DNA of 64,000 nt. Origin: Bacillota bacterium. GTDB taxonomy: Bacteria > Bacillota > Sulfobacillia > JACIYH01. The notes under the pieces are model-generated. The model was not told the origin of the DNA. It did no database searches and worked only from the letters and a program-made list of their open reading frames with translations. Where the stretch lies: contig JBFLXJ010000011.1 of assembly GCA_040757085.1 (NCBI GenBank), forward strand, positions 36,086 to 100,085. The letters are read 5' to 3'. Within the stretch, counting starts at the first letter, position 1, and each line of letters starts with the position of its first letter. Below are positions 9,923-48,553 of this stretch, piece after piece. The position numbers were made by a program, and so were the translations under genes.

Positions 9923-10824
9923 GCTGGGAAGGTGGAACCTTGGCGGTGGTGGTTAAGAGAAAGGATATGCGTCGTGCCACGCCCGACTCGTTTTCGTTCC
10001 GGAAGTACGCCGTGCGCAGGTTCGTTCAGAACCGGGGCGCTGTGCTGGGCTTGTTGCTGTTTGTCTCCCTGATAGTCTCCGCCGTCCTGGCCCCCTGGAT
10101 TGCCCCCTATGACCCATACGAAGTGAGTTCTAACCGTCTCGCTCGTCCCTCGCGGGAGCATCCCCTGGGAACAGATGCGCTGGGAAGGGATGTCCTGAGC
10201 CGGATCCTGTACGGAGGCCGGATTTCCCTGCAGGTGGGAGTGATAGCGGTAGGCATTGCGGCAGTAACTGGGACTGTGCTGGGCCTCATCGCCGGCTACT
10301 TTGAAGGTTGGCTGGACCATGTCATCATGCGCTTGATGGAAGTCATGTTAGCCTTTCCAGGTATACTCCTGGCAATGGCAATTATCGCCGTGCTTGGCTC
10401 CGGCCTGTTCAACGTTATGATCGCGGTGGGCATTGCCTCCGTTCCCTCCTACACCAGACTGGTGCGGGGAGTGACTCTGTCGGTTAAGCAGAACGAATAT
10501 GTGCAGGCTGCTCGCGCGTTGGGTAGCGGGACCGGGCGCATCATGTTGCGCCACCTGGTGCCAAACATTGCTGCCCCCATCGTGGTTCTGTCCACCCTGG
10601 GGGTGGCGAGTGCCATCCTCACCTGTGCGGGGCTGAGTTTCATCGGGTTGGGCGCACCTCCTCCCACTGCGGAGTGGGGTGCCATGCTGGCTGCGGATCG
10701 GGTTTACCTGCGTCGTGCCTGGTGGGTGGTGGCTTTCCCGGGCCTGGCCATTACCATTTCAGTGCTAGCCATCAACCTGTTGGGTGACGGTCTGCGGGAC
10801 GCGCTGGATCCTCGGCTCAAGTGA
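9919..10824 (+). CDS. ABC transporter permease (DppC/OppC-like)
   Basis: GTGA start/stop overlap with upstream permease; DppC-type motif (YVQAARALGSGTGRIMLRHLVPN). Confidence 0.85.
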   Translation: MSWEGGTLAVVVKRKDMRRATPDSFSFRKYAVRRFVQNRGAVLGLLLFVSLIVSAVLAPWIAPYDPYEVSSNRLARPSREHPLGTDALGRDVLSRILYGGRISLQVGVIAVGIAAVTGTVLGLIAGYFEGWLDHVIMRLMEVMLAFPGILLAMAIIAVLGSGLFNVMIAVGIASVPSYTRLVRGVTLSVKQNEYVQAARALGSGTGRIMLRHLVPNIAAPIVVLSTLGVASAILTCAGLSFIGLGAPPPTAEWGAMLAADRVYLRRAWWVVAFPGLAITISVLAINLLGDGLRDALDPRLK

Positions 10825-11078
10825 GACGCCTCGAGGGACTGGGACGAGGGTCCTCCCGCGTAATCTGTTCCGGGTGAGAGGGTGGTTGACCGGGAAAGCA
10901 AGAGGGAAGTGGCCACCGATCCGGGCAACGCCGCCCGCACCGGGTCCAAGAGGCGCTTCCGGGTGATTCTGCGCGTCATCCCCGACGGGGGTCACGCCCT
11001 GACGAGGGCCAGGGGCTTCATCATCGACCGGTTTCTGGGCGAAATACTGGCGGAGCTCGAGGGCGAGGGCGACGGGCG

Positions 11079-12632
11079 TTGCGGGCGGTGATATACGCGC
11101 GCGTCTCCACCGACGAGCAGGCGACCCGGGGCTACTCCTTGGAAGACCAGGTGGAACGGTGCACTGCCCACGCCCGGGAACTGGGGGCAATCCAGATCGA
11201 AATCTTCCGTGATGTGGAATCCGGGAGTGTCCTCACCCGGCCGGGACTGTTGGCCGCACGGGAACGGGTGGCGAGGGGCGGGGTGGAGCTTTTCGTGTGC
11301 TACGACCCGGACCGGCTGGCGCGCAATCTATCCCACCAGCTCCTGCTCACGGAGGAGATCGAGTCACGGGGGACACGGCTGGAATTCGTCAACTTCGCAT
11401 GGAAGAACACCCCCGAGGGGAAGCTCTTTTACTCGCTGCGCGGCGCTATTGCCGAATACGAGAAAGAGAAAATCAGGGAACGGAGCGTGCGCGGCAAGTT
11501 GCGGAAGCTACGGGAGGGTCGGCTTACTCACGACCCGCGCACCTACGGTTACCGGTTTGATCGGGAGCGGGATACGCTGCTGGTGGTCCCCGAGGAGGCG
11601 ACCGTGGTGCGCCGTATCTTTTCCTGGTACGCCGATGAAAACCTGGGTTGCGGCGCCATTGTATCGCGGCTCACTTCCCTCGGCATCCTCCCTCCCCGGG
11701 GGAGAAGCTGGCACCGGTCAACCGTGTCCCGTATCCTGCGTAACCCGGCGTACATCGGTTCCGCCTGCTTTCACCGGTACAACGCCGAGGGCGTGCACGC
11801 CACCAGGAGACTTCCCCCCGGCCAGAGGGTGCTCAGGAAGGAACGACCTCCGGAGGAGTGGGTTGAGGTCCCCGTTCCCGCCATAGTGGACCGGGAACTG
11901 TTCGAGCGCGCGCAGGAGAAACACCGGATGGCGAGACGCCTCTGGGCGGGGAAGTCGAGAACCCAGTATCTCCTGCGGGGCCTGGTGTGGTGCGGGGTAT
12001 GCGGGGGCAGGATCAACGGCAACCTCATCACGTCTAAAGCTAAGAAGCGGAGGTATTATGTGTGCCGGGCCGGAACAGGCCGTACACAAGGAGGCAGGGC
12101 AGGGCCTGCTTGTACGCTGGGGTACGTCCCCGCCGACGACCTGGAACGGGCGGTCTGGTATGTGGTGCTCACCGCACTGTCCGACCCGGACGCCTACCGC
12201 CGTGATCTGCAGGAAAGGACCAGGGAGGCGTGCCTGTATTTGAACACGACCGTTGAGGGCATCCAGGAGCAGATCTCCCGGTGGGCAGAACGTCGTCGCC
12301 GCCTGCTCGAGTTGTACGAGAAGGGAGTGATCCACCTGGGGGAGGTCGAGGAGAGGCTTGCGCAGTTGGGACGTTTGGTGGCCGAGCTGACCCGGCGACG
12401 AGATGACCTCCTCAGGAATGGGCCCCCGGTGGTGGTTCCCACAGATCCGGCCAGGCTGGAGCACGTCGCGGCTAAACTGGTGGAGCGGTTGGGTCGCCTG
12501 GGTTTCGAGGAGCGTCAGACCCTGGTGCGCACGCTGGTTGCCGGGCTCACCGTTCTCCCTGACGCGGTGATCCTGCACGTGCGCTGGCCCGCCGGTGCGG
12601 CAGTCTCGGGGAAAGTTGCCTCGTGCGTATAG
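11079..12632 (+). CDS. large serine recombinase (resolvase catalytic domain + recombinase domain + zinc ribbon/coiled coil)
   Basis: N-terminal AVIYARVSTDEQ catalytic serine motif, CYDPDRLARN, GRLTHDPRTYGYRF recombinase-domain motif, Cys cluster WCGVCGG...YYVCRAG; ~517 aa. Confidence 0.85.
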   Translation: MRAVIYARVSTDEQATRGYSLEDQVERCTAHARELGAIQIEIFRDVESGSVLTRPGLLAARERVARGGVELFVCYDPDRLARNLSHQLLLTEEIESRGTRLEFVNFAWKNTPEGKLFYSLRGAIAEYEKEKIRERSVRGKLRKLREGRLTHDPRTYGYRFDRERDTLLVVPEEATVVRRIFSWYADENLGCGAIVSRLTSLGILPPRGRSWHRSTVSRILRNPAYIGSACFHRYNAEGVHATRRLPPGQRVLRKERPPEEWVEVPVPAIVDRELFERAQEKHRMARRLWAGKSRTQYLLRGLVWCGVCGGRINGNLITSKAKKRRYYVCRAGTGRTQGGRAGPACTLGYVPADDLERAVWYVVLTALSDPDAYRRDLQERTREACLYLNTTVEGIQEQISRWAERRRRLLELYEKGVIHLGEVEERLAQLGRLVAELTRRRDDLLRNGPPVVVPTDPARLEHVAAKLVERLGRLGFEERQTLVRTLVAGLTVLPDAVILHVRWPAGAAVSGKVASCV

Positions 12633-37669: not shown

Positions 37670-37811
37670 ACTCTTATCCAGAGCGGCGGAGGGACTGGCC
37701 CGATGAAGCCCGGCAACCGGTCACGGGGCTAAGGCCGGCGACGGCCCCAGCCCGAGAGCGTGATGACGGTGCCAACTCCTGCGGAACCCCACGGTTCCGA
37801 GAGATGAGAGG
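37670..37811 (+). ncRNA. SAM-I (S-box) riboswitch
   Basis: matches S-box consensus blocks: CTCTTATCcAGAGcGGCGGAGGGACTGGCCCGATGAAGCCCGGCAACC ... GGTGCCAACTCCTGCGG ... GAGAGATGAGAGG. Confidence 0.85.
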
Positions 37812-37889: not shown

Positions 37890-39431
37890 GTGCCCATCTT
37901 GCCCAAGACGTTCGCCGAGATCAACCAGCGCATCCGGGAGGGCAAGGCGGTTGTGGTCACCGCCGAGGAAGTCATCCCGCTGGTGCGGGAGAAGGGCCCC
38001 CGCCGGGTGGCCCAGGAGGTGGATGTGGTTACCACGGCCACCTTCGCCCCCATGTGCTCGTCGGGAGCGTTCCTGAATTTCGGCCACAGCGAACCGCCCA
38101 TCAAGATGCAGTCGGTACGCCTGAATGACGTCCCCGCCCATGCCGGGGTGGCGGCGGTGGACGCCTACCTGGGGGCCACCGAACTCAGCCGCGTGCGGGG
38201 GATGGACTACGGGGGCGCGCACGTCATCGAAGACCTGGTATCGCGGCGGCCGGTCCTGCTGGAGGCGGAGAGCTACGGGACTGACTGTTACCCGCGGCGG
38301 TCGATCCGTACTTTCATCAGCCTGGACTCCCTGAACCAGGCCTACCTTTTTAACCCCCGGAACTGTTATCAGAACTACGCCGCCGCCACCAACGGCTCGG
38401 ACCGGATCATCTACACCTACATGGGCAAGCTCCTGCCCCGCTTCGGTAACGTGACGTATTGCAGTGCCGGCCAGCTCAGCCCCCTGCTCAACGACCCCGA
38501 CCTGCGTACGGTGGGCATTGGCACCCGGGTGTTCCTGGGCGGGGGCATCGGATACGTGGCCTGGGAGGGAACGCAGCATTTCCCGGCGCGCCGTCGCCGG
38601 GGTGACACACCGGTGGGGCCGGCGGCCACCCTGGCGCTGGTAGGGGATTTACGGGGGATGGACCCGCGCTTCCTGCGCGCCGCCACCTTCACGGGCTACG
38701 GGGTCACCCTGTTCGTGGGGGTGGGGATTGCCATCCCCATCCTGGATGAGGATCTGGCTCGCCAGGTGGCGGTGAGCGACCGGGAAATCCACACGGTGGT
38801 CCTGGACTACGGCCAACCCCACCGGGATCGCCCCGTGGTGGCCGAGGTGAGCTACGCGGAGCTACGCTCCGGGCGTGTGCTGTTGCGGGATCGCTGGGTG
38901 CCCGCTGCGCCGCTGTCCAGCCTGCGCAAGGCGCGCGAGATCGCTGTCATCCTGAAAGATTGGGTGGCGAGCGGACGTTTCTTGCTAACGGAGCCGGTTG
39001 CTCCCCTTCCCTGGCGTGATTCCCTGCACACCCTGGCCGTTACTCCGCGGGCCGGAAGCGATCCTGCTGCGGCGGAGACAGCTGCCTCTGCAGAGGGGGA
39101 CGGTCGGGGAGCATCGGGTAGGGCGGGTGTACCTGCTGCCCCGGAGGTCGCGGCCCCGGCGCAGGGGGCCGAGGGCAAGGGGGTAGAGGTTCCCCCCAGC
39201 CCTGCGACCGATCTTCTGCGGAACGGCAGGGGAAGGCCCGAACCGGATGGGGAACGCTGTGTGGCGTGTGGTGCCTGCACCGGGGTGTGCCTGCCGGGGG
39301 CGCTGCACCTTGACCCGGCCACCTGGGAGCTCTGCTGGCGGCCGGATCTGTGCACATCCTGCGCCCTGTGCCTGGATGCTTGCCCGGTGGGGGCCCTGGG
39401 CGTGGCCGTGCCCGCTGGAGGAGAGGGGTGA
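37890..39431 (+). CDS. homocysteine biosynthesis enzyme, COG1900/DUF39 family (sulfur incorporation) with C-terminal 4Fe-4S ferredoxin domain
   Basis: DUF39-type N-terminal region (AVVVTAEEV...VDVVTTATFAPM), C-terminal CVACGACTGVCLPGA...CTSCALCLDACPVGA; sits under SAM riboswitch. Confidence 0.7.
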   Translation: MPILPKTFAEINQRIREGKAVVVTAEEVIPLVREKGPRRVAQEVDVVTTATFAPMCSSGAFLNFGHSEPPIKMQSVRLNDVPAHAGVAAVDAYLGATELSRVRGMDYGGAHVIEDLVSRRPVLLEAESYGTDCYPRRSIRTFISLDSLNQAYLFNPRNCYQNYAAATNGSDRIIYTYMGKLLPRFGNVTYCSAGQLSPLLNDPDLRTVGIGTRVFLGGGIGYVAWEGTQHFPARRRRGDTPVGPAATLALVGDLRGMDPRFLRAATFTGYGVTLFVGVGIAIPILDEDLARQVAVSDREIHTVVLDYGQPHRDRPVVAEVSYAELRSGRVLLRDRWVPAAPLSSLRKAREIAVILKDWVASGRFLLTEPVAPLPWRDSLHTLAVTPRAGSDPAAAETAASAEGDGRGASGRAGVPAAPEVAAPAQGAEGKGVEVPPSPATDLLRNGRGRPEPDGERCVACGACTGVCLPGALHLDPATWELCWRPDLCTSCALCLDACPVGALGVAVPAGGEG

Positions 39432-39435
39432 CCCC

Positions 39436-40177
39436 CGTGCAGGTGGAGGAAAGATTCTACCGCCACGTCATGGGGGGTGCCGACCTGGTCACCTTCCAGG
39501 TGCAGGAAGGAGAAACAGACCTGTGGGTAGGGGTGGATCGGGAGAGTTGGCGTCTCGATCTCCCCGACCGGGTCCGCGAAGTCGTGCGGCGTGTGCGCCG
39601 GGACCTGGAAGACTACATCGGCAGAGACAGCAGGTTTATGACTTCCCTGGTGCCGGTGCCGGTCCCCGAGGATGTCCCCGGCGTGGTCCGCGAGATGGCC
39701 ATTGCCGCTGCCCGGGTGGGGGTAGGTCCCATGGCGGCTGTGGCCGGCGCGGTGGCCGAAGAGGTGGGACGGGCCCTTCTGGGCGAGGCCGGCGAGGTCA
39801 TCGTGGAGAACGGCGGTGACATCTTCCTCTGCAGCCGCAAACCGCGCCGGGTGGCGATCCTGGCCGGAACGTCGCCGTTCTCCATGCGGGTGGGCCTGCT
39901 CATCCGGGGAGACGGCCGTCCCGTGAGCGTGTGCACCTCGGCGGGACGCTGGGGGCATTCGCTGAGTTTGGGGCGGGCGGACGCGGCGGTGGCGGTGGCC
40001 CCGTCAGGGGCTCTGGCCGATGCCGCCGCTACCTGGCTGGGGAACCTGGTTCGGGAAGTGGGGGACCTTCCCACCGCTCTGGAACAGGCCCGCCGCCTGT
40101 CCGGGCTGACGGGGGCGGTGCTGATCAAAGACGCTCAGTTGGCGGCCTGGGGCGACATCCACCTTACCCCCGTCTGA
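39436..40177 (+). CDS. UPF0280/COG2122 (ApbE-like) family protein, partner of COG1900
   Basis: size and conserved blocks (GPMAAVAGAVAEEVG, VIVENGGDIFL) consistent with COG2122; GTG start after GGAGGAGAGGGG. Confidence 0.6.
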
Positions 40178-40286: not shown

Positions 40287-40316
40287 TTGACAACATGAGC
40301 GGGCAGATGCTATTTT
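40287..40316 (+). promoter_or_regulatory. sigma-A type promoter of hrcA operon (TTGACA-18 nt-TATTTT)
   Basis: TTGACA 40287-40292, TATTTT 40311-40316, immediately upstream of CIRCE. Confidence 0.55.
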
Positions 40317-40327
40317 CTTGATGGGTT

Positions 40328-40354
40328 TTAGCACTCTGCTGGCCGGAGTGCTAA
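40328..40354 (+). promoter_or_regulatory. CIRCE operator (HrcA binding site), perfect consensus
   Basis: TTAGCACTC-TGCTGGCCG-GAGTGCTAA, perfect 9-N9-9 inverted repeat. Confidence 0.85.
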
Positions 40355-40363
40355 GGTGAGACG

Positions 40364-41401
40364 GTGGACGAGCGCAAGCGGAGGATACTGCAGGCCATAG
40401 TGGAGGACTACGTGGCCACGGCCGAGCCGGTGGGTTCTCGCACCATCGCGCGCAAGTACGGGCTCGGGGTCAGCGCGGCCACTATCCGCAATGAGATGGC
40501 GGATCTGGAAGAGTTGGGGTACGTGGAGCAGCCCCATGCTTCGGCGGGGCGTATCCCATCTGACCGGGGATACCGCTACTACGTGGACGAACTGATGGAG
40601 GTGAAGCCGCTACCTGCCCCTGTGGCCGAGCGTGTCCAGGAACTGTGTGAGGGCCGCGTGCGGGCCATGGAAGCGGTGCTTCAGCAGGTGGCGCGCCTCC
40701 TCAGCGAGGCTACCAGTTCGTTGGCCATCCTGGTGGGGCCCCATGCTGGTCAGATGGTGTTCCGCAGCCTGGATCTGGTTCCCATCGGGCCCGGGCGGGC
40801 GCTGCTGGTGGCCGTGGCGGACCTCGGATTGCTGGAGTCGGGTATGGTGGAAGTCCCTGCGGATCTTACCCGGGCTGAACTCCAGTACATCTCCCAGGTG
40901 CTCACCCGGGCGCTGCGTGGCCTGACGGTGCAGGCACTGACTCAGAGCGTATTGCGGGAACTGGACGCGGAGCTGGCCCGTTACCGTCAGGTGCTGGAGC
41001 AGGTCCTGGAGATTCTGGTGGCCTCGGCCGGCGAACATCCCTCCGAGCGTATGTACCTGGTAGGGCTGAGCGCCCTGCTTTCGCAGCCCGAGTTCCACGA
41101 TCGGCAGCGGCTGCGGGCGGTGATATCAGTCCTCGAACAGGAGGTCCTGGTGAAGTACCTGCTTCTGGCCTCGGGGGAGCGAGCGGTGGAGTCGGGGGTG
41201 ACGGTGAGCATAGGCCAGGAGAATCCTCTGGGCGAGGTGCGCGACCTGAGCCTGGTGTTCGCTCCCTATCGGGTGGGCATGTCCCTGGGACGGCTGGCGG
41301 TGATAGGTCCCAAGCGTATGGACTACGGCCGGGTCGTGGGGGCGGTGTCGGAGTTCGAACGGGTACTGAGCGATCTCCTGGGGAGGTGGACCCTCGTGTA
41401 G
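40364..41401 (+). CDS. hrcA: heat-inducible transcription repressor HrcA
   Basis: N-terminal RKRRILQAIVEDYVATAEPVGSRTIARKYGLGVSAATIRNEMADLEELGY; GTG start. Confidence 0.9.
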   Translation: MDERKRRILQAIVEDYVATAEPVGSRTIARKYGLGVSAATIRNEMADLEELGYVEQPHASAGRIPSDRGYRYYVDELMEVKPLPAPVAERVQELCEGRVRAMEAVLQQVARLLSEATSSLAILVGPHAGQMVFRSLDLVPIGPGRALLVAVADLGLLESGMVEVPADLTRAELQYISQVLTRALRGLTVQALTQSVLRELDAELARYRQVLEQVLEILVASAGEHPSERMYLVGLSALLSQPEFHDRQRLRAVISVLEQEVLVKYLLLASGERAVESGVTVSIGQENPLGEVRDLSLVFAPYRVGMSLGRLAVIGPKRMDYGRVVGAVSEFERVLSDLLGRWTLV

Positions 41402-41464
41402 GGAGGGCGTCACCGGCCCCAGATTTCGCTCCTAAATCTTTTTTTTGTGCAGGGAGGTCTATAG

Positions 41465-43060
41465 ATGGCGCTCAAGCAGGTGGCGTCCGGTGCCGAGATC
41501 GACGAAAAGCTGGCGGCCCTATTGACAAATGCCAACGCGGTGCGTGCGATCGCCTCCGCAGTGGAAGGCACCATCGGTCCCAAGGGTCTCAACACCCTGC
41601 TGGTTGACCGCTTCGGAGACGTGACCATAACCAACGACGGGGTGACCATCCTTACCAAGATGGACGTCAACCACCCCGCCGCCAAGATGGTCATCAACGT
41701 GGCCCGTGCCCAGGAAGAGGAAGTGGGGGACGGTACCACAACCGCCACCATCATGGCAGGAGCGCTCCTCACCGAGGGTGTGAACCAGGCGGTGAGAGGG
41801 GTACCGGTGACGCGCATCATCGAGGGGGTCAAGCTCGGCATCCGCAAAGCGATCGAGGAAGTGGAGGCCAGGTCGCGACCGGTAGCCGGAGTGGATGATC
41901 CCATCCTGCGCCGGGTGGCGTACATTTCCGGACGGGAACAGGAGGACATCGCCGACCTGGCGGTGCGGGCGGCCGCCATGGTGGGAAAAGAGAAACTCCT
42001 CGACCGCTCTTTCAAGCTTTCGGACACCGTGGTGGCCAAGGCCGGGGCGGATAACGAAGTGTTCATGGGGGTCATCGTGGACAAGCAACGCACGAACAGG
42101 GAGATGCCCAAAGAGGTGTTCCCCGTCCGGGTCCTGGTGGTGGACGATGCTCTGGAGCCCGAGGAGATAGAAGAGGAAGCCCTCGGCACCGAGGCCGGCT
42201 TTGGCCGCTACATGCAGTTGCAGGAAGAGTTCCGTGCCAACGTGCGCAAGGTGATCTCCCTGGGCGTCAACCTGGTAGTGGTGGACCGCGGAGTGGACGA
42301 GGCCGCGGAGGAAATGTTCACTGACGCCGGGGTCATGGTGCTGCAGCGGGTATCGTCCCGGGAGCTGCGCCAGGTGGCCGAGCATACTGGGGCCAGAGCG
42401 ATCAAGCGCACCGCCCTGCGCAAGGAGCCGGCGGAACTGGAGAAGTATCTGGGCGCGGCGGACCGGGCGTACGAAGACGAGAAGCTGGAGCACGTGCGCA
42501 TCCTGGGTGGAAAGGGCAAGCCCATGGCCACCATCCTGGTGGGTGCAGCCACCCAGGAGGTGGTGGGTGAGCGGGAACGCATCGCCAAAGATGCCACCTC
42601 GGCCGTGCAGGCAGCGGTGCGGGGCGGGGTGGTCCCGGGAGGAGGGGCCATCGAGCTGGCGGTGGCGCGGGAGGTAGAGAAGCTACGCGCCAGCGTGCGG
42701 GGGATGGCAGCCTACGGGGTCGATTGCGTGGCGGAAGCCCTCAAGAAGCCCCTTTCCCAGATTGTGGCCAACGCCGGTTTCAATCCCCTGGAGAAAGTGG
42801 GGGACGTAATCGCTGCTCAGGTGGAGAGGGGCTCGGATTCGCTCGCGGTGGACTGCGACACCGGTGAAGTGGTGGACATGTACGAGGCGGGGGTGGTCGA
42901 TCCCACTCCTGTCAAGACCTATGCTCTGCGGGCGGCGGGAGAGATCGCGGAAGCTATCCTGCGCATCGACACGATCATAAAGAAGAAGGATGAGGGAGGA
43001 CCCGGCCAGCAGGGCGGGGAAGAGACTGGCGGTTCCCCTGGGGGAGAGATGGACTTCTGA
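41465..43060 (+). CDS. group II (thermosome/TCP-1 family, archaeal-type) chaperonin
   Basis: TCP-1 signatures LGPKGLNTLLVDRFGDVTITNDGVTIL, HPAAKM, EVGDGTTTATIMAGALL; 531 aa; GGGAGG RBS. Confidence 0.85.
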   Translation: MALKQVASGAEIDEKLAALLTNANAVRAIASAVEGTIGPKGLNTLLVDRFGDVTITNDGVTILTKMDVNHPAAKMVINVARAQEEEVGDGTTTATIMAGALLTEGVNQAVRGVPVTRIIEGVKLGIRKAIEEVEARSRPVAGVDDPILRRVAYISGREQEDIADLAVRAAAMVGKEKLLDRSFKLSDTVVAKAGADNEVFMGVIVDKQRTNREMPKEVFPVRVLVVDDALEPEEIEEEALGTEAGFGRYMQLQEEFRANVRKVISLGVNLVVVDRGVDEAAEEMFTDAGVMVLQRVSSRELRQVAEHTGARAIKRTALRKEPAELEKYLGAADRAYEDEKLEHVRILGGKGKPMATILVGAATQEVVGERERIAKDATSAVQAAVRGGVVPGGGAIELAVAREVEKLRASVRGMAAYGVDCVAEALKKPLSQIVANAGFNPLEKVGDVIAAQVERGSDSLAVDCDTGEVVDMYEAGVVDPTPVKTYALRAAGEIAEAILRIDTIIKKKDEGGPGQQGGEETGGSPGGEMDF

Positions 43061-43066
43061 CCTGGA

Positions 43067-43357
43067 GTGGTGGGTTTGGAAGCCGGCGATGACCCACTGG
43101 TACTCAAGCTGGCCCAGTACCTGACCACCGAGTTCCGGGAGCGAACCGGGGTGGACCTGCGCTCTGACCCGGTGGCCTGGGACAAAGTCCTGCGGGCGGC
43201 CAGGCAGGCACGCCGGCAACTCGCCCGCTCCACGGTATACAGCGTCTCGCTCCCCTTCCTCGTGAGGGGGAATGAAGGACCCCTTCACCTGGACGTGGTG
43301 ATCACGCAGCGCCAGTTCCTGGAACTCATGATGGGGGAGGTACCCGGGGAGGGCTAG
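43067..43357 (+). pseudogene. Hsp70/DnaK-like fragment (96 aa, corresponds roughly to DnaK residues ~225-320); probable remnant
   Basis: alignable to DnaK segment [58 protein letters not shown]...IKVTRAKLESL (~30% identity by eye); no N-terminal ATPase start or C-terminal SBD. Confidence 0.45.
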
Positions 43358-43359
43358 CT

Positions 43360-44469
43360 TTGCCCGACAAGCGGGACTACTACGAGATCCTCGGTGTGAG
43401 CCGGGATGCCAGCCAGGAGGAAATAAAGAAGGCGTTCCGGCGGCTGGCTCGCCAGTACCACCCGGACGCCAACCCCGGTGACCCCACTGCCGAGGAGAAG
43501 TTCAAACAGATTAACGAGGCGTACGCGGTCCTTTCCGACCCTGAGAAGCGGGCGCGCTACGACGCCTTCGGCGCGGTCGACGGTGCCCCCGACCTGGGGA
43601 GTCCCTTCGCTGGCATCCAGGACCTGTTCGACATGTTCTTCGGGACCGGCCGGCCCCGGGGGCCGCGGCCCCATGAGCCCAAGCGGGGGGCCGACCTGCG
43701 CTTGGATCTGGACATCACCCTGGAGGAAGCCTTCGCCGGGGTCGAGAAAGAGCTGGAAGTACCGCGGGTGGAGCGGTGCCCCATCTGCGATGGGACGGGG
43801 GCCCGGCCCGGGAGTCCACCGGTAATATGTTCCCGATGCCGGGGTAGCGGGCAGGTGGAAACGGTGTCCGACAGCCTGTTCGGTCGCTTCGTCTCCATCC
43901 GCACCTGCCCGGCGTGCGGCGGAGAAGGGAGGGTGGTGACCGACCCCTGTCCCGACTGCGGAGGACTGGGCCGGGTGCGGCGGGTGCGGCACATCAACGT
44001 CAAGGTCCCCCCGGGGGCGGACAGCGGTTTGCGGCTGCGCCTGGCCGAAGAAGGTGAACCCGGTGCCCGGGGTGGACCTCCTGGCGACCTGTACGTGGAC
44101 ATCCATGTGCGGCCGCATCGCTTCTTCCGCCGGGAAGGCGACGACCTGCACTGTGAGGTAACCATCAGTTTCATCCAGGCTGCCCTGGGCACCGTGCTGG
44201 AAGTACCCACTCTGGAGGGGTCAAGTCCGGTTAAGGTGCCCGAGGGGACGCAACCCGGAACGGTGATCCGGCTGCGGGGCCTGGGGATGCCCCGCCTGCG
44301 GGGAGGAGGAAGGGGTGACCTGCACGTACACCTGGACGTGCGCACTCCTACCGGGCTCAGCCCCCGGGAGAAGGAGTTGCTGCGGGAGCTGGCTGCCATC
44401 CGCGGGGAGGGCGTCAAGGGGAAGGACAAGGGGATATGGGGGCGCGTGAAAGAAGCCTGGAACAGCTGA
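43360..44469 (+). CDS. dnaJ: molecular chaperone DnaJ
   Basis: J-domain DYYEILGV...HPD, Gly/Phe region, four CxxCxGxG zinc-finger repeats. Confidence 0.9.
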
Positions 44470-45254
44470 ACCCCTGCCCCCATGCCCGCTTCACCGTGGA
44501 AGCGGGGGCCATCCGGGGCGACGAAGTGCTGTTCGGACAGGAGGCGGCCTGGCAAATGGCGCGCGTCCTGCGTCTCGGGCCCGGCCAGGTGGTGGGGGTG
44601 ATGGTGGAAGGGCGGGAACTGGCCGTCAGGCTCGAAGAGGTGGGGCCACGGCAGAGCAGGGGGCGGGTGCTGGGGCCGGTGGACAGGTTCACCGAGCCGG
44701 GGGTAACGGTGGCCATCCTCCAGGCCCTGCTCAAGGGGGACCGCACGGACCTGGTGGTGCAGAAAGCCACCGAACTGGGGGTCAGCTACATCTTCCCCGT
44801 TATCACCGCCCGAACGGTGGTGCGCCCCTCCGCATCCCCAGGGAAATTGCAGAGGTGGGAGAAGATCGCCCGCGAGGCTGCCGAACAGTCACTGCGCACC
44901 CGGGTGCCGGCCATCTTTCCTCCCCAGAATCTGGAGCAGGCCCTGGAGCAGGCCCGTCAGTTGTTGCCGGGGGCTACTCTTGTCGTCCTCTGGGAAGAAG
45001 AGCGGAAGGTGGGTTTGTGCGATGTGCTGGCGGGCGACGGTAAGGAAATCATATTGCTGATGGGACCCGAGGGAGGCCTGACGGCGGACGAGGTGGCCGG
45101 GGTGCTGGCACTGGGTGGCAGGTCGGCCAGCCTGGGTACCCGCATCCTGCGTTCGGAGACGGCGGCGCTCGCTGCCCTCACCCTGGTGCTGGCGTCCCGG
45201 GGCGAGATCGGCCGCGCCCCCGGGGGGTGGAGACCGGGGTGTGTTTCGTCTTGA
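44436..45254 (+). CDS. rsmE: 16S rRNA (uracil1498-N3)-methyltransferase RsmE
   Basis: RsmE-type N-terminus (ARFTV...) and C-terminal SPOUT motif [15 protein letters not shown]...[17 protein letters not shown]; start uncertain (overlaps dnaJ). Confidence 0.75.
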
Positions 45255-46633
45255 GCGAGGGCGGGCCGCGGGGGAAGGTGGCCTTTTACACCTTGGGTTG
45301 CAAGGTGAACCGGTACGATACCGAGGCCATGGCCGAACTTTTCCGCCGGGCGGGATGGGAGATAGTCGACTTCCGGGATATGGCCGACGTGTACGTCGTC
45401 AACACGTGCACGGTCACGGCCCGGAGCGAGGCCCAGTCCCGTCAGGCGGTGCGGCAGGCACGGCGTCGGAATCCCGCCGGCCTGGTGGTGGTGTGCGGTT
45501 GTTATCCCCAGGTGCAGGGGGAAGAAGCACTTTCTGCCACGGGCGCCGACGTGGTGCTGGGAACGCGGGGACGGGGTAAGATCGTCTCCCTGGTGGAAAG
45601 GGCCCTGCGGGGCGAGAAGCCCTTGGTGGAGGTGGCGCCCGGGCCCGCCATGAGCACCCGCCCTGCACCGGTTACCCCGGAGGCTGCTACGGCTCCAGAG
45701 CAGTACGAGGAGGTTCCGGTGGTGGGCCAGGGTCGCACGCGGGCTATCCTCAAGGTGCAGGAAGGGTGTAACATGCGCTGTACATACTGCATCGTCCCCG
45801 CTGCCCGGGGACATGCCCGCAGCCGCGACCCGGGGGCTGCCCTGGAGGAAGCCCGCCGCCTGGTGGCGGCCGGGTTCCGGGAGATCGTCCTTACCGGCAT
45901 CCAGCTGGGCGCCTACGGCCGCGACCTGGGCATTCCCGATGGGCTGGCCTGGCTGGTGGAGAAGATGGCCGCCATCGGCGGCCTGTGGAGGCTGCGCCTG
46001 AGTTCCATCGAGCCGGTGGACCTCACGGACGCGCTCGTTGGCACCATGGCTTCTCAGCGGGTTGTTTGCCCCCACCTGCACCTCCCCCTGCAAAGCGGCT
46101 CCGACCGCGTCCTGGCGGCCATGGGGCGGCCTTACTCCGCCGGGGATTACCTGCGCCTGGTGGAGCGGGCCCGGGAAAAGATGCCGGGAATGGCCCTCTC
46201 CACCGACGTGATGGTCGGGTTCCCCGGCGAGACGGACGAGGACTTCGCCGCCACGCTGCAGGTGGTGGAAAAGGCTGGTTTCATGCGGCTGCATGTCTTC
46301 CCCTATTCCCCCAGGCCAGGCACGGCCGCTGCCCGGTTGCCGGACGGGGTGCCCGAGAAAGTGAAGGAGGAGAGGGCTCGCGTCCTGCGCGAACTGGGTA
46401 TGCGTCTGGGCCGGGCCTTTGCGGAGCAAATGGTGGGACAGGTGGTGGAGGTTCTGGCGGAGCGGGAGCAGGACGGCCAGGTGTCCGGGTTGACCCGGAA
46501 CTACGTGAGGGTTCGCTTCCCCGGCGGGCCGGAACTGGAAGGATGCCTGGTCGAGGTGCGCGTCATCGGTGCCGACCCCGACGGTGCGCGGGGCGAGTTG
46601 ACGGGCGTGCTGGCAGCTCCGGAAGACGAATAG
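45227..46633 (+). CDS. mtaB: radical-SAM methylthiotransferase, MtaB (YqeV)-like
   Basis: MTTase N-domain (VAFYTLGCKVNRYDTE), radical SAM CxxxCxxC (CNMRCTYC), TRAM C-terminus; conserved position after rsmE as in Bacillus yqeV. Confidence 0.75.
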   Translation: METGVCFVLSEGGPRGKVAFYTLGCKVNRYDTEAMAELFRRAGWEIVDFRDMADVYVVNTCTVTARSEAQSRQAVRQARRRNPAGLVVVCGCYPQVQGEEALSATGADVVLGTRGRGKIVSLVERALRGEKPLVEVAPGPAMSTRPAPVTPEAATAPEQYEEVPVVGQGRTRAILKVQEGCNMRCTYCIVPAARGHARSRDPGAALEEARRLVAAGFREIVLTGIQLGAYGRDLGIPDGLAWLVEKMAAIGGLWRLRLSSIEPVDLTDALVGTMASQRVVCPHLHLPLQSGSDRVLAAMGRPYSAGDYLRLVERAREKMPGMALSTDVMVGFPGETDEDFAATLQVVEKAGFMRLHVFPYSPRPGTAAARLPDGVPEKVKEERARVLRELGMRLGRAFAEQMVGQVVEVLAEREQDGQVSGLTRNYVRVRFPGGPELEGCLVEVRVIGADPDGARGELTGVLAAPEDE

Positions 46634-48218: not shown

Positions 48219-48247
48219 TTGACAGGCCCCTGCTGGTGCCATACAAT
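48219..48247 (+). promoter_or_regulatory. sigma-A type promoter for rpsU (TTGACA-17 nt-TACAAT)
   Basis: TTGACA 48219-48224, TACAAT 48242-48247. Confidence 0.6.
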
Positions 48248-48303
48248 GGCGGTGTTGGCGCGGGTGGCGTTTGCTCCCCGCGGAGATTCGTCGGGGAGGA
48301 GGG

Positions 48304-48486
48304 ATGCAGGTGACCGAAGTACGCGTCGGGAAGGACGAATCCCTCGACAACGCCTTGCGCCGCTTCAAACGGGAATGTCAGAAGACGGGAATCCTGGCGG
48401 AAATCCGGCGACGTGAGCACTACGAAAAGCCCAGTGTCAGGCGCAAGAAGAAGTCCAAGGCGGCCCAGCGCAGAAAGCACCGTTGA
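48304..48486 (+). CDS. rpsU: 30S ribosomal protein S21
   Basis: [45 protein letters not shown]; GGGGAGGAGGG RBS before ATG 48304. Confidence 0.85.
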
Positions 48487-48553
48487 GCAGGCCCGAGCAC
48501 CGTGGAGAAAGACCCAGGCGACCAGTCCCCAGCGGGACTGGTCGATAATTTTG

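Follow-up and report, generated by a model that had tools for sequence, protein, structure and literature searches.

A putative HrcA/CIRCE-controlled group III chaperonin operon lacking grpE and dnaK and encoding a candidate stand-alone DnaK subdomain IIB protein

Introduction

Techtmann and Robb are said to have described, in 2010, a group III chaperonin/hsp70 operon in Carboxydothermus hydrogenoformans and other Firmicutes. To our knowledge, group III chaperonins have always been discussed as DnaK partners on the basis of gene position, with no physical link shown. In the published description they lie, one exception aside, within an operon encoding Hsp70, Hsp40, and GrpE. Their location in an HrcA-regulated hsp70 operon has already been published (PMC5635000, PMC5904260). 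An earlier first-pass annotation of the DNA studied here had noted that archaeal-like chaperonins of a few bacteria, such as Carboxydothermus, sit in the dnaK operon. Physical coupling of the group III chaperonin and Hsp70 has been suspected but not demonstrated, with experiments described as "in progress" (An et al. 2017, PMC5635000). Here, we analyze a 64,000-nt stretch (65% G+C; referred to as the window) of contig JBFLXJ010000011.1, which comes from an uncultured, spore-forming Bacillota lineage. Its heat shock operon encodes a chaperonin of this family and DnaJ, but grpE and dnaK are missing, and in their place lies a small gene, here called mini-Hsp70, whose product corresponds to a single lobe of DnaK.

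On the plus strand, the operon consists of a promoter-like site, a CIRCE (controlling inverted repeat of chaperone expression) operator, hrcA, a gene for a thermosome-like chaperonin (cpn), mini-Hsp70, and dnaJ (Table 1), and both the order and the positions given by the first-pass annotation were recovered. With moderate confidence, we explain this locus as a derived group III chaperonin/Hsp70 operon that encodes a selected, IIB-only accessory protein and a DnaJ whose Hsp70 is encoded elsewhere. The frame of CIRCE, hrcA, group III cpn, and dnaJ is known. In the literature that we searched, neither a stand-alone IIB protein nor a group III operon without dnaK was found to be described, and as far as that search goes, the operon form lacking dnaK and grpE and the stand-alone IIB protein are new.

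The chaperonin falls into group III

The cpn product had been annotated as an archaeal-type (group II) chaperonin, closer to the thermosome than to GroEL. The second part stands, since the best NCBIfam models are thermosome with 309 bits, ahead of GroEL with at most 197 bits, but the first does not. The protein misses the thermosome cutoffs (309.5 versus 400 bits for thermosome_beta, 306 versus 450 for thermosome_alpha, and 307 versus 671 for TIGR02339). Among proteins of solved structure, the C. hydrogenoformans CPN (PDB 5x9u), the group III prototype, gives 488 bits, and no thermosome gives more than 248. Bacterial relatives, from Thermosinus, Pelotomaculum, Thermincola, Sporomusa, and Desulfotomaculum, are 67 to 77% identical.

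A hallmark of group III is a nucleotide-sensing loop that is six residues shorter than in group II and has an arginine (Arg155 of Ch-CPN) in place of a lysine (PMC5635000). The corresponding loop of the window chaperonin, AYISGREQEDIADL, aligns gap-free to AKIAGRGDERVA of 5x9u and shows gaps of two plus four residues against the thermosome 1a6d and against 9rwp, with Arg157 opposite the thermosome lysine. In the lid (residues ~236 to 250), sequence alignment to either group II protein opens query gaps of three residues and one residue, and alignment to 5x9u opens none. CIRCE and hrcA immediately precede the gene and dnaJ lies further on, in an operon that has no dnaK and grpE. By its scores and alignments, the window chaperonin is a bacterial group III and not a group II protein.

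The window chaperonin also scores 713 bits against a resurrected ancestral chaperonin (9rwq). PDB entries 9rwq and 9rwp are both labeled "Ancestral Group II Chaperonin (ACII)," and 9rwp reaches only 312 bits against the same protein; under a wrong molecule name, 9rwq probably represents the ancestral group III chaperonin (ACIII) reported in PMC12696368. Separately, the C termini of group III chaperonins have a variable Gly/Glu-rich tail followed by a conserved Asp-Phe (MDF, ADF, or LDF). This ending is seen in the window (43052 to 43057), in the related loci L009, L011, and L094, and in chaperonin alignment A1, and it could be a docking motif.

Loss of grpE and dnaK from group III chaperonin operons

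Between hrcA and dnaJ of the window, grpE is absent and only a short Hsp70-like piece is left, as the first-pass annotation had observed. A tblastn search of the 64 kb, for which six DnaKs and three GrpEs encoded at related loci served as queries, found no further dnaK or grpE. We classified 80 species-representative loci encoding a group III chaperonin by the content between cpn and dnaJ. Three are cut by a contig end, which leaves 77 classifiable loci. The interval contains grpE and a full dnaK (hrcA-cpn-grpE-dnaK-dnaJ) in 62 of them, only a short Hsp70-like open reading frame (ORF) in 5, and nothing (9 to 79 nt) in 10, so that grpE-dnaK is missing from 15 of the 77 operons. The first-pass annotation had proposed that the chaperonin replaced grpE-dnaK. 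However, the chaperonin gene, between hrcA and grpE, is part of the commonest form of the operon, and the window is therefore a deletion derivative that secondarily lost grpE-dnaK, with no replacement.

Mis-assembly had been named as a possible cause of the arrangement. The order hrcA-cpn-mini-Hsp70-dnaJ is found in independent JGI, NCBI, ENA, and Logan assemblies (loci L001-L009, L011, L012, L017, and L093-L095), one of which is a 725-kb contig, and an 18-kb JGI contig of identical gene order encodes a chaperonin identical to that of the window. Four repositories together contain at least 15 independent assemblies with the cpn-mini-Hsp70-dnaJ junctions, which are therefore not an assembly artifact. 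The junctions are also short and gene dense, with ribosome-binding sites, and the divergence between copies follows the coding pattern. No point was found to support a chimeric or collapsed assembly in which grpE-dnaK truly lies between cpn and dnaJ, and we regard this as practically inconceivable.

A neighbor-joining (NJ) tree was calculated from concatenated HrcA, CPN, and DnaJ (1195 columns, 100 bootstraps). In this tree, lineages without dnaK branch among lineages that have it. The window clade and the dnaK-bearing L016 form a group (80% bootstrap support), and the mini-Hsp70-bearing L017 groups with the dnaK-bearing L020 and L062 (94%). One wholly dnaK-less clade (100%) unites L009 and L012, which have mini-Hsp70, with L014, L025, and Fermentithermobacillaceae-like loci, which have none. 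The interleaving points to at least two to three independent deletions of grpE-dnaK.

A second, decaying copy of the operon adjoins an rve-type transposase in L088 (3122 to 7917), and likewise in L090 and L089. It comprises CIRCE, hrcA, a frameshifted group III cpn, grpE, and a dnaK that is cut after residue 390, with only the nucleotide-binding domain (NBD) left. The truncated dnaK is 97% identical to the L062 DnaK. The metagenome-assembled genome (MAG) that contains the L088 copy, GCA_040758135.1, also has the intact L020 operon; the copy may have been caught in the course of operon duplication and decay, or the bin may combine two strains. The MAGs of L012, L013, L016, L059, L062, and L088 are labeled Pseudomonadota, Ignavibacteriales, Acetobacteraceae, Patescibacteria, or Chloroflexota despite a typical Bacillota operon and neighborhood, and they are probably mislabeled or contaminated bins.

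A small gene corresponding to DnaK subdomain IIB

The ORF between cpn and dnaJ had been described as a 96-residue Hsp70-like fragment, to which dnaK was reduced. It is Hsp70-like and short, but it is not debris of dnaK. Gene callers and homologs use a TTG start at 43076, which gives 93 residues, and an alternative GTG start at 43067 gives 96. A GGAG Shine-Dalgarno sequence lies at 43064 to 43067. The gene is spaced 15 nt from the cpn stop, and its own stop lies 2 nt 5' of the dnaJ start. The G+C contents at the first, second, and third codon positions are 0.74, 0.41, and 0.82, respectively, with third-position G+C (GC3) like that of the neighboring genes. NCBI names the product "Hsp70 family protein."

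The Pfam HSP70 profile, which has 599 positions, matches mini-Hsp70 with 37 bits, above the gathering score of 20.6, over one short segment only (Table 1). DnaK equivalog models give 39 to 49 bits versus cutoffs of 648 to 1019, and a complete NBD, the linker, and the substrate-binding domain (SBD) are not present. In comparison with the Escherichia coli sequence and with Firmicutes DnaKs from the loci, mini-Hsp70 is collinear with E. coli DnaK residues ~228 to 310, which make up the entire NBD subdomain IIB alone. An AlphaFold2 (AF2) model from an eight-sequence alignment (predicted local distance difference test [pLDDT] score of 82, predicted template modeling [pTM] score of 0.72) has a helix-helix-hairpin-helix fold. 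Foldseek places it on lobe II/IIB of the DnaK NBD with a template modeling (TM) score of 0.80 and a root mean square deviation of 1.4 Å over 80 residues.

Homologs of mini-Hsp70 have 93 to 106 residues and are 62 to 98% identical. The types of the family are represented by the window; by L009, L011, and P0130; by L017, P0135, and P0137; and by L012. All have 84 to 119 residues and the same domain boundaries, and in every type with retrievable context (all but P0135 and P0137), the ORF is placed between cpn and dnaJ. It is intact in 13 of 13 classified loci, window included, and in L093-L095. The HrcA proteins of the lineages that carry it are 41 to 48% identical to each other. In the window-type family, 44 of the 93 positions are invariant. 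The ratio of nonsynonymous to synonymous substitution rates (dN/dS) is 0.14 to 0.20 for mini-Hsp70 within the window clade, versus 0.04 to 0.10 for hrcA, cpn, and dnaJ; in other pairs, for which dS is saturated, it is 0.11 to 0.42. Judging from these sequence comparisons, mini-Hsp70 is a conserved gene under purifying selection and not a decaying dnaK.

The mini-Hsp70 proteins are 22 to 44% identical to the IIB segments of DnaK, which are 65 to 86% identical among themselves. Two differences stand at E264 and E267 (E. coli numbering), which are invariant glutamates in 10 of the 10 DnaKs aligned: the window protein has Arg/Arg, and the other types have R/Q/A and R/K/A. In DnaK, E264 and E267 latch the cleft by salt bridging to K55 and R56 in subdomain IB (PMC8215388). 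E264 maps in our alignment to E236 of Mycobacterium tuberculosis (Mtb) DnaK, a residue that is salt bridged to GrpE; GrpE binding is abolished in the double mutant E236A/Y257A (PMC10803776). The predicted cleft-side surface of mini-Hsp70 is altered and more basic. Since the nucleotide cleft and the rest of the ATPase are lost, mini-Hsp70 should be unable to bind nucleotide as DnaK does. The replacement of E264 and E267 makes mimicry of DnaK toward GrpE unlikely, and it likewise disfavors mimicry of the GrpE or IB contact, which we considered.

We also considered a stop codon read-through that would fuse CPN to mini-Hsp70, as the two ORFs share a frame (TGA plus five codons) in the window (41465 to 43357) and in L002 (8390 to 10282). 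The ORFs are in different frames in L006, L008, and L009, which indicates that the shared frame is a coincidence and makes a conserved fusion unlikely. In L017, a 377-residue ORF on the opposite strand (10077 to 11210, minus strand) lies between mini-Hsp70 and dnaJ. It has C-terminal CxxC...CxxC motifs and, by eye, resembles a TnpB/OrfB-type IS200/IS605 accessory protein.

A profile search with IIB returned detached IIB domains in unrelated architectures outside the window. P0129 has a TIR_2 domain followed by two IIB copies. P0134 and P0136 have FHA-like (Yop-YscD_cpl) N termini, two IIB copies, and a membrane segment. P0131, a surface-type protein of 1305 residues, has IIB twice, and P0132 is a bare tandem IIB pair. 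Such architectures show that IIB can fold and serve on its own. The TIR-IIB fusion hints at a use of the module in defense or signaling.

DnaJ and its presumed Hsp70 partner

The window DnaJ has a J domain with HPD at residues 34 to 36, a Gly/Phe-rich region, four CXXCXGXG zinc finger motifs, and the C-terminal client-binding domains. Pairwise identity of the J domain averages 0.72 in ten dnaK-less lineages and likewise 0.72 in 58 dnaK-bearing ones, and HPD is present in 74 of 74 DnaJs. We know of no role of HPD other than stimulating an Hsp70 ATPase. The conservation of the J domain suggests that an Hsp70 partner persists, probably encoded elsewhere in the genome. The sole described Hsp70-less bacteria have lost J-proteins and GrpE too (PMC8215388). 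Relocation of dnaK via duplication is plausible, given the second operon copy found in this group (L088).

In all the dnaK-less loci and within 8 kb of them, tblastn found no dnaK or grpE other than the mini-Hsp70 ORF. For a wider search, a GrpE profile was built from the five closest dnaK-bearing lineages, and the best 120 of more than 7900 matches were used. The matches P0283, P0297, P0299, P0289, and P0360 were all found to come from other lineages. Chaperonin-less relatives reached via GrpE matches (L091, L092, and L096-L098) keep grpE-dnaK in 5 of 5 cases, in a type of search that retrieves only grpE-bearing loci.

Promoter, operator, and gene layout

The operator, the promoter, and the repressor gene identify the locus as an HrcA/CIRCE regulon, with predicted heat inducibility. 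The promoter-like site ends 12 nt 5' of CIRCE. The CIRCE match is unique in the 64-kb window at up to three mismatches, with 0 matches in 100 shuffles, and a perfect CIRCE is found 5' of hrcA in 83 of 92 related loci. All four genes from hrcA to dnaJ show the GC3-rich codon pattern of genuine genes, and each has its own Shine-Dalgarno sequence.

Table 1. Features of the heat shock operon and the genes that directly follow it in the window
Feature	Position	Strand	Details
Sigma-70-type promoter-like site	40287..40316	+	TTGACA, 18 nt, TATTTT with TG extension; consensus matches 10/12
CIRCE operator, predicted HrcA binding site	40328..40354	+	Perfect TTAGCACTC-N9-GAGTGCTAA
hrcA, heat-inducible repressor, 345 aa	40364..41401	+	PF01628 E=7e-56; TIGR00331 313 bits (cutoff 197)
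cpn, group III chaperonin, 531 aa	41465..43060	+	Pfam Cpn60_TCP1 E=4e-114
mini-Hsp70, 93 aa from TTG	43076..43357	+	Pfam HSP70 profile positions 229-303 only, E=1.5e-9
dnaJ, type I J-protein, 369 aa	43360..44469	+	TIGR02349 419 bits (cutoff 377)
rsmE, 16S rRNA m3U1498 methyltransferase	44436..45254	+	Overlaps dnaJ end
mtaB, tRNA ms2t6A methylthiotransferase	45227..46633	+	TIGR01579 428 bits (cutoff 357); conserved downstream synteny

Downstream of dnaJ follow rsmE, mtaB, ddl, a HIT protein gene, and then rpsU, and the Bacillus-like synteny noticed in the first-pass annotation (rsmE, mtaB) is indeed intact. No terminator-like site was found on the plus strand from hrcA to 48519, and rsmE is probably in the same transcription unit as dnaJ. 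The rpsU gene (48271 to 48486; region 48219 to 48544) has its own near-consensus promoter, TTGACA-17-TACAAT (11/12), and is followed by a strong terminator-like hairpin at 48519 to 48544. The rpsU promoter and the hairpin end the long co-oriented run that begins at hrcA.

Just 5' of the heat shock operon, an S-adenosylmethionine (SAM) riboswitch (RF00162, 84.5 bits) at 37671 to 37810 on the plus strand directly precedes a gene at 37890 to 39431 on the same strand, which encodes a homocysteine biosynthesis HcyBio domain (PF01837) and ferredoxin domains. An AbpE-like gene follows at 39350 to 40177. Together, the riboswitch and the HcyBio and AbpE-like genes look like a SAM-controlled sulfur incorporation route to homocysteine.

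Proposed mechanism and alternatives

In the window lineage, grpE and all of dnaK except the IIB-encoding segment are gone from the operon, and this segment is left as an independent ORF. In the explanation that we favor, HrcA would leave CIRCE upon heat shock, and CPN, mini-Hsp70, and DnaJ would be made together in coupled amounts. Mini-Hsp70 itself would be no chaperone and most likely a small protein-binding accessory, which may preserve or repurpose an interaction that the IIB lobe of DnaK formerly had with another operon product. The chaperonin would be the prime candidate for this partner and DnaJ the second, and DnaJ would work with a full-length Hsp70 encoded elsewhere.

Several observations weigh against this explanation. 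The deep nodes of the NJ tree have 13 to 41% support, and amino acid composition driven by G+C may distort the tree, with possible attraction of L016 (70% G+C). Ten related lineages have no mini-Hsp70 ORF at all, which makes it dispensable at least there. Its dN/dS is 2 to 5 times that of the neighboring genes, and no columns of the chaperonin alignment were found to be specific to mini-Hsp70-bearing lineages beyond phylogeny. No grpE or dnaK of genomes with a dnaK-less operon appeared among the best 120 of more than 7900 GrpE matches, in a search that could not be targeted to these genomes. Moreover, that the deletion recurred independently would be easier to explain if dnaK was no longer needed.

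The last two points also belong to a rival explanation, in which Hsp70 was lost from the whole genome, the group III chaperonin took over, and DnaJ, perhaps with the IIB protein as an adaptor, feeds clients without DnaK. There were at least two to three independent deletions, which among the sampled loci affected only chaperonin-bearing operons; the five chaperonin-less relatives keep grpE-dnaK, though they were retrieved by GrpE. Neither gene was found in the window (64 kb) or up to 8 kb from the dnaK-less loci, and several source samples look thermophilic, Hsp70 loss being known in thermophiles (PMC8215388). However, the J domain is conserved equally with and without an operon-encoded DnaK and HPD is invariant, whereas the described Hsp70-less bacteria lost DnaJ and GrpE along with DnaK (PMC8215388). 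The failure to find dnaK elsewhere is weak evidence, and the duplicated operon copy of L088 makes relocation plausible. We hold this rival to be rather unlikely, and genome-wide Hsp70 loss in these lineages, taken by itself, to be unlikely as well. Quite doubtful, in our judgment, is the far-reaching form in which Hsp70 and GrpE are entirely absent from several deep Bacillota lineages and in which the J-protein, the free IIB lobe, and the thermosome-like chaperonin make up a heat-inducible, DnaK-independent folding pathway, with IIB as the former chaperonin-docking piece of DnaK.

Two other explanations concern mini-Hsp70 alone. It could be a heat-induced decoy for GrpE or for the middle (M) domain of ClpB and so tune either nucleotide exchange on a DnaK encoded at another place or the recruitment of the disaggregase to it. 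Both partners dock on IIB (PMC10803776), and the structural neighbors of the model include the DnaK-GrpE complexes 1dkg, 4ani, and 8gb3 and the ClpB-DnaK NBD complex 6w6e. Nevertheless, GrpE and ClpB bind a cleft formed by IB and IIB together, and mini-Hsp70 has no IB. In addition, E264, the counterpart of the Mtb residue in the GrpE salt bridge, is replaced by R, Q, or A in all mini-Hsp70 subfamilies, and E267 is replaced as well, so that a decoy seems improbable. The ORF could also be a nonfunctional dnaK remnant that is still open by chance, since, with an identity of only 30 to 37%, it has diverged from DnaK IIB far more than any DnaK has, evolves with a higher dN/dS than its neighbors, and was wholly lost in ten related lineages. 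Yet the ORF is intact, of conserved length, and cut at exact subdomain boundaries in the 13 loci and in L093-L095, and its dN/dS of 0.11 to 0.42 is not near 1. Its GC3 is of the coding type, it has its own Shine-Dalgarno sequence and start and a stop 2 nt from the dnaJ start, the AF2 fold is confident and compact, and almost half of the positions are invariant in the window-type family. We therefore give the remnant explanation very little chance. A selected IIB-only accessory protein beside a DnaJ that relies on a distant Hsp70 is the explanation that we retain.

Significance and comparison with known systems

The loci described here indicate that the Hsp70 and GrpE genes can be removed repeatedly from the group III chaperonin operon and that several lineages have retained exactly one lobe of DnaK, in the form of a small protein of its own whose gene lies between those of the chaperonin and DnaJ. 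Mini-Hsp70 offers a concrete handle on the suspected coupling of chaperonin and Hsp70, and it adds to the evidence for subdomain IIB as an autonomous, reusable module. The operon form also points out genomes whose J-protein may have no Hsp70 encoded in the same operon. If the DnaK-independent pathway were true, DnaK and group III chaperonins would be physically coupled, and the coupling surface would be revealed.

The Aquificales have lost all three genes of the DnaK-DnaJ-GrpE system from the genome (Warnecke 2012, as cited in PMC8215388). They share with the dnaK-less lineages the disappearance of dnaK and grpE from the usual place, and several source samples of these lineages appear thermophilic. 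In contrast to the Aquificales, the window keeps a dnaJ with an intact J domain, and the loss is known here for the operon only. With the Bacillus subtilis-type operon, hrcA-grpE-dnaK-dnaJ, the window shares CIRCE, hrcA, dnaJ, and the downstream order rsmE-mtaB...rpsU-yabP-yqfD-phoH. It differs by the added chaperonin, the missing grpE and dnaK, and the absence of prmA between dnaJ and rsmE.

The Carboxydothermus-type operon has the same chaperonin family (488 bits to 5x9u, short Arg loop, and lid deletions) directly 3' of hrcA, the same CIRCE/HrcA control, and dnaJ downstream. The difference is that the window has no grpE and dnaK and encodes a stand-alone IIB-lobe protein in their place. Whereas the published operon description includes Hsp70 and GrpE, 15 of the 77 classifiable species loci here have neither in the operon. 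With subdomain IIB of the DnaK NBD (PDB 5oow, 1dkg, and 7rax), mini-Hsp70 shares the fold and boundaries (two helices, a beta-hairpin, and a helix) and the core motifs G(I/V)DL, LPF, and GPxHLD. It differs in being free-standing, with no IA, IB, IIA, linker, or SBD, in having arginine at E264 and E267, and in its identity of only 22 to 44% to the DnaK segments.

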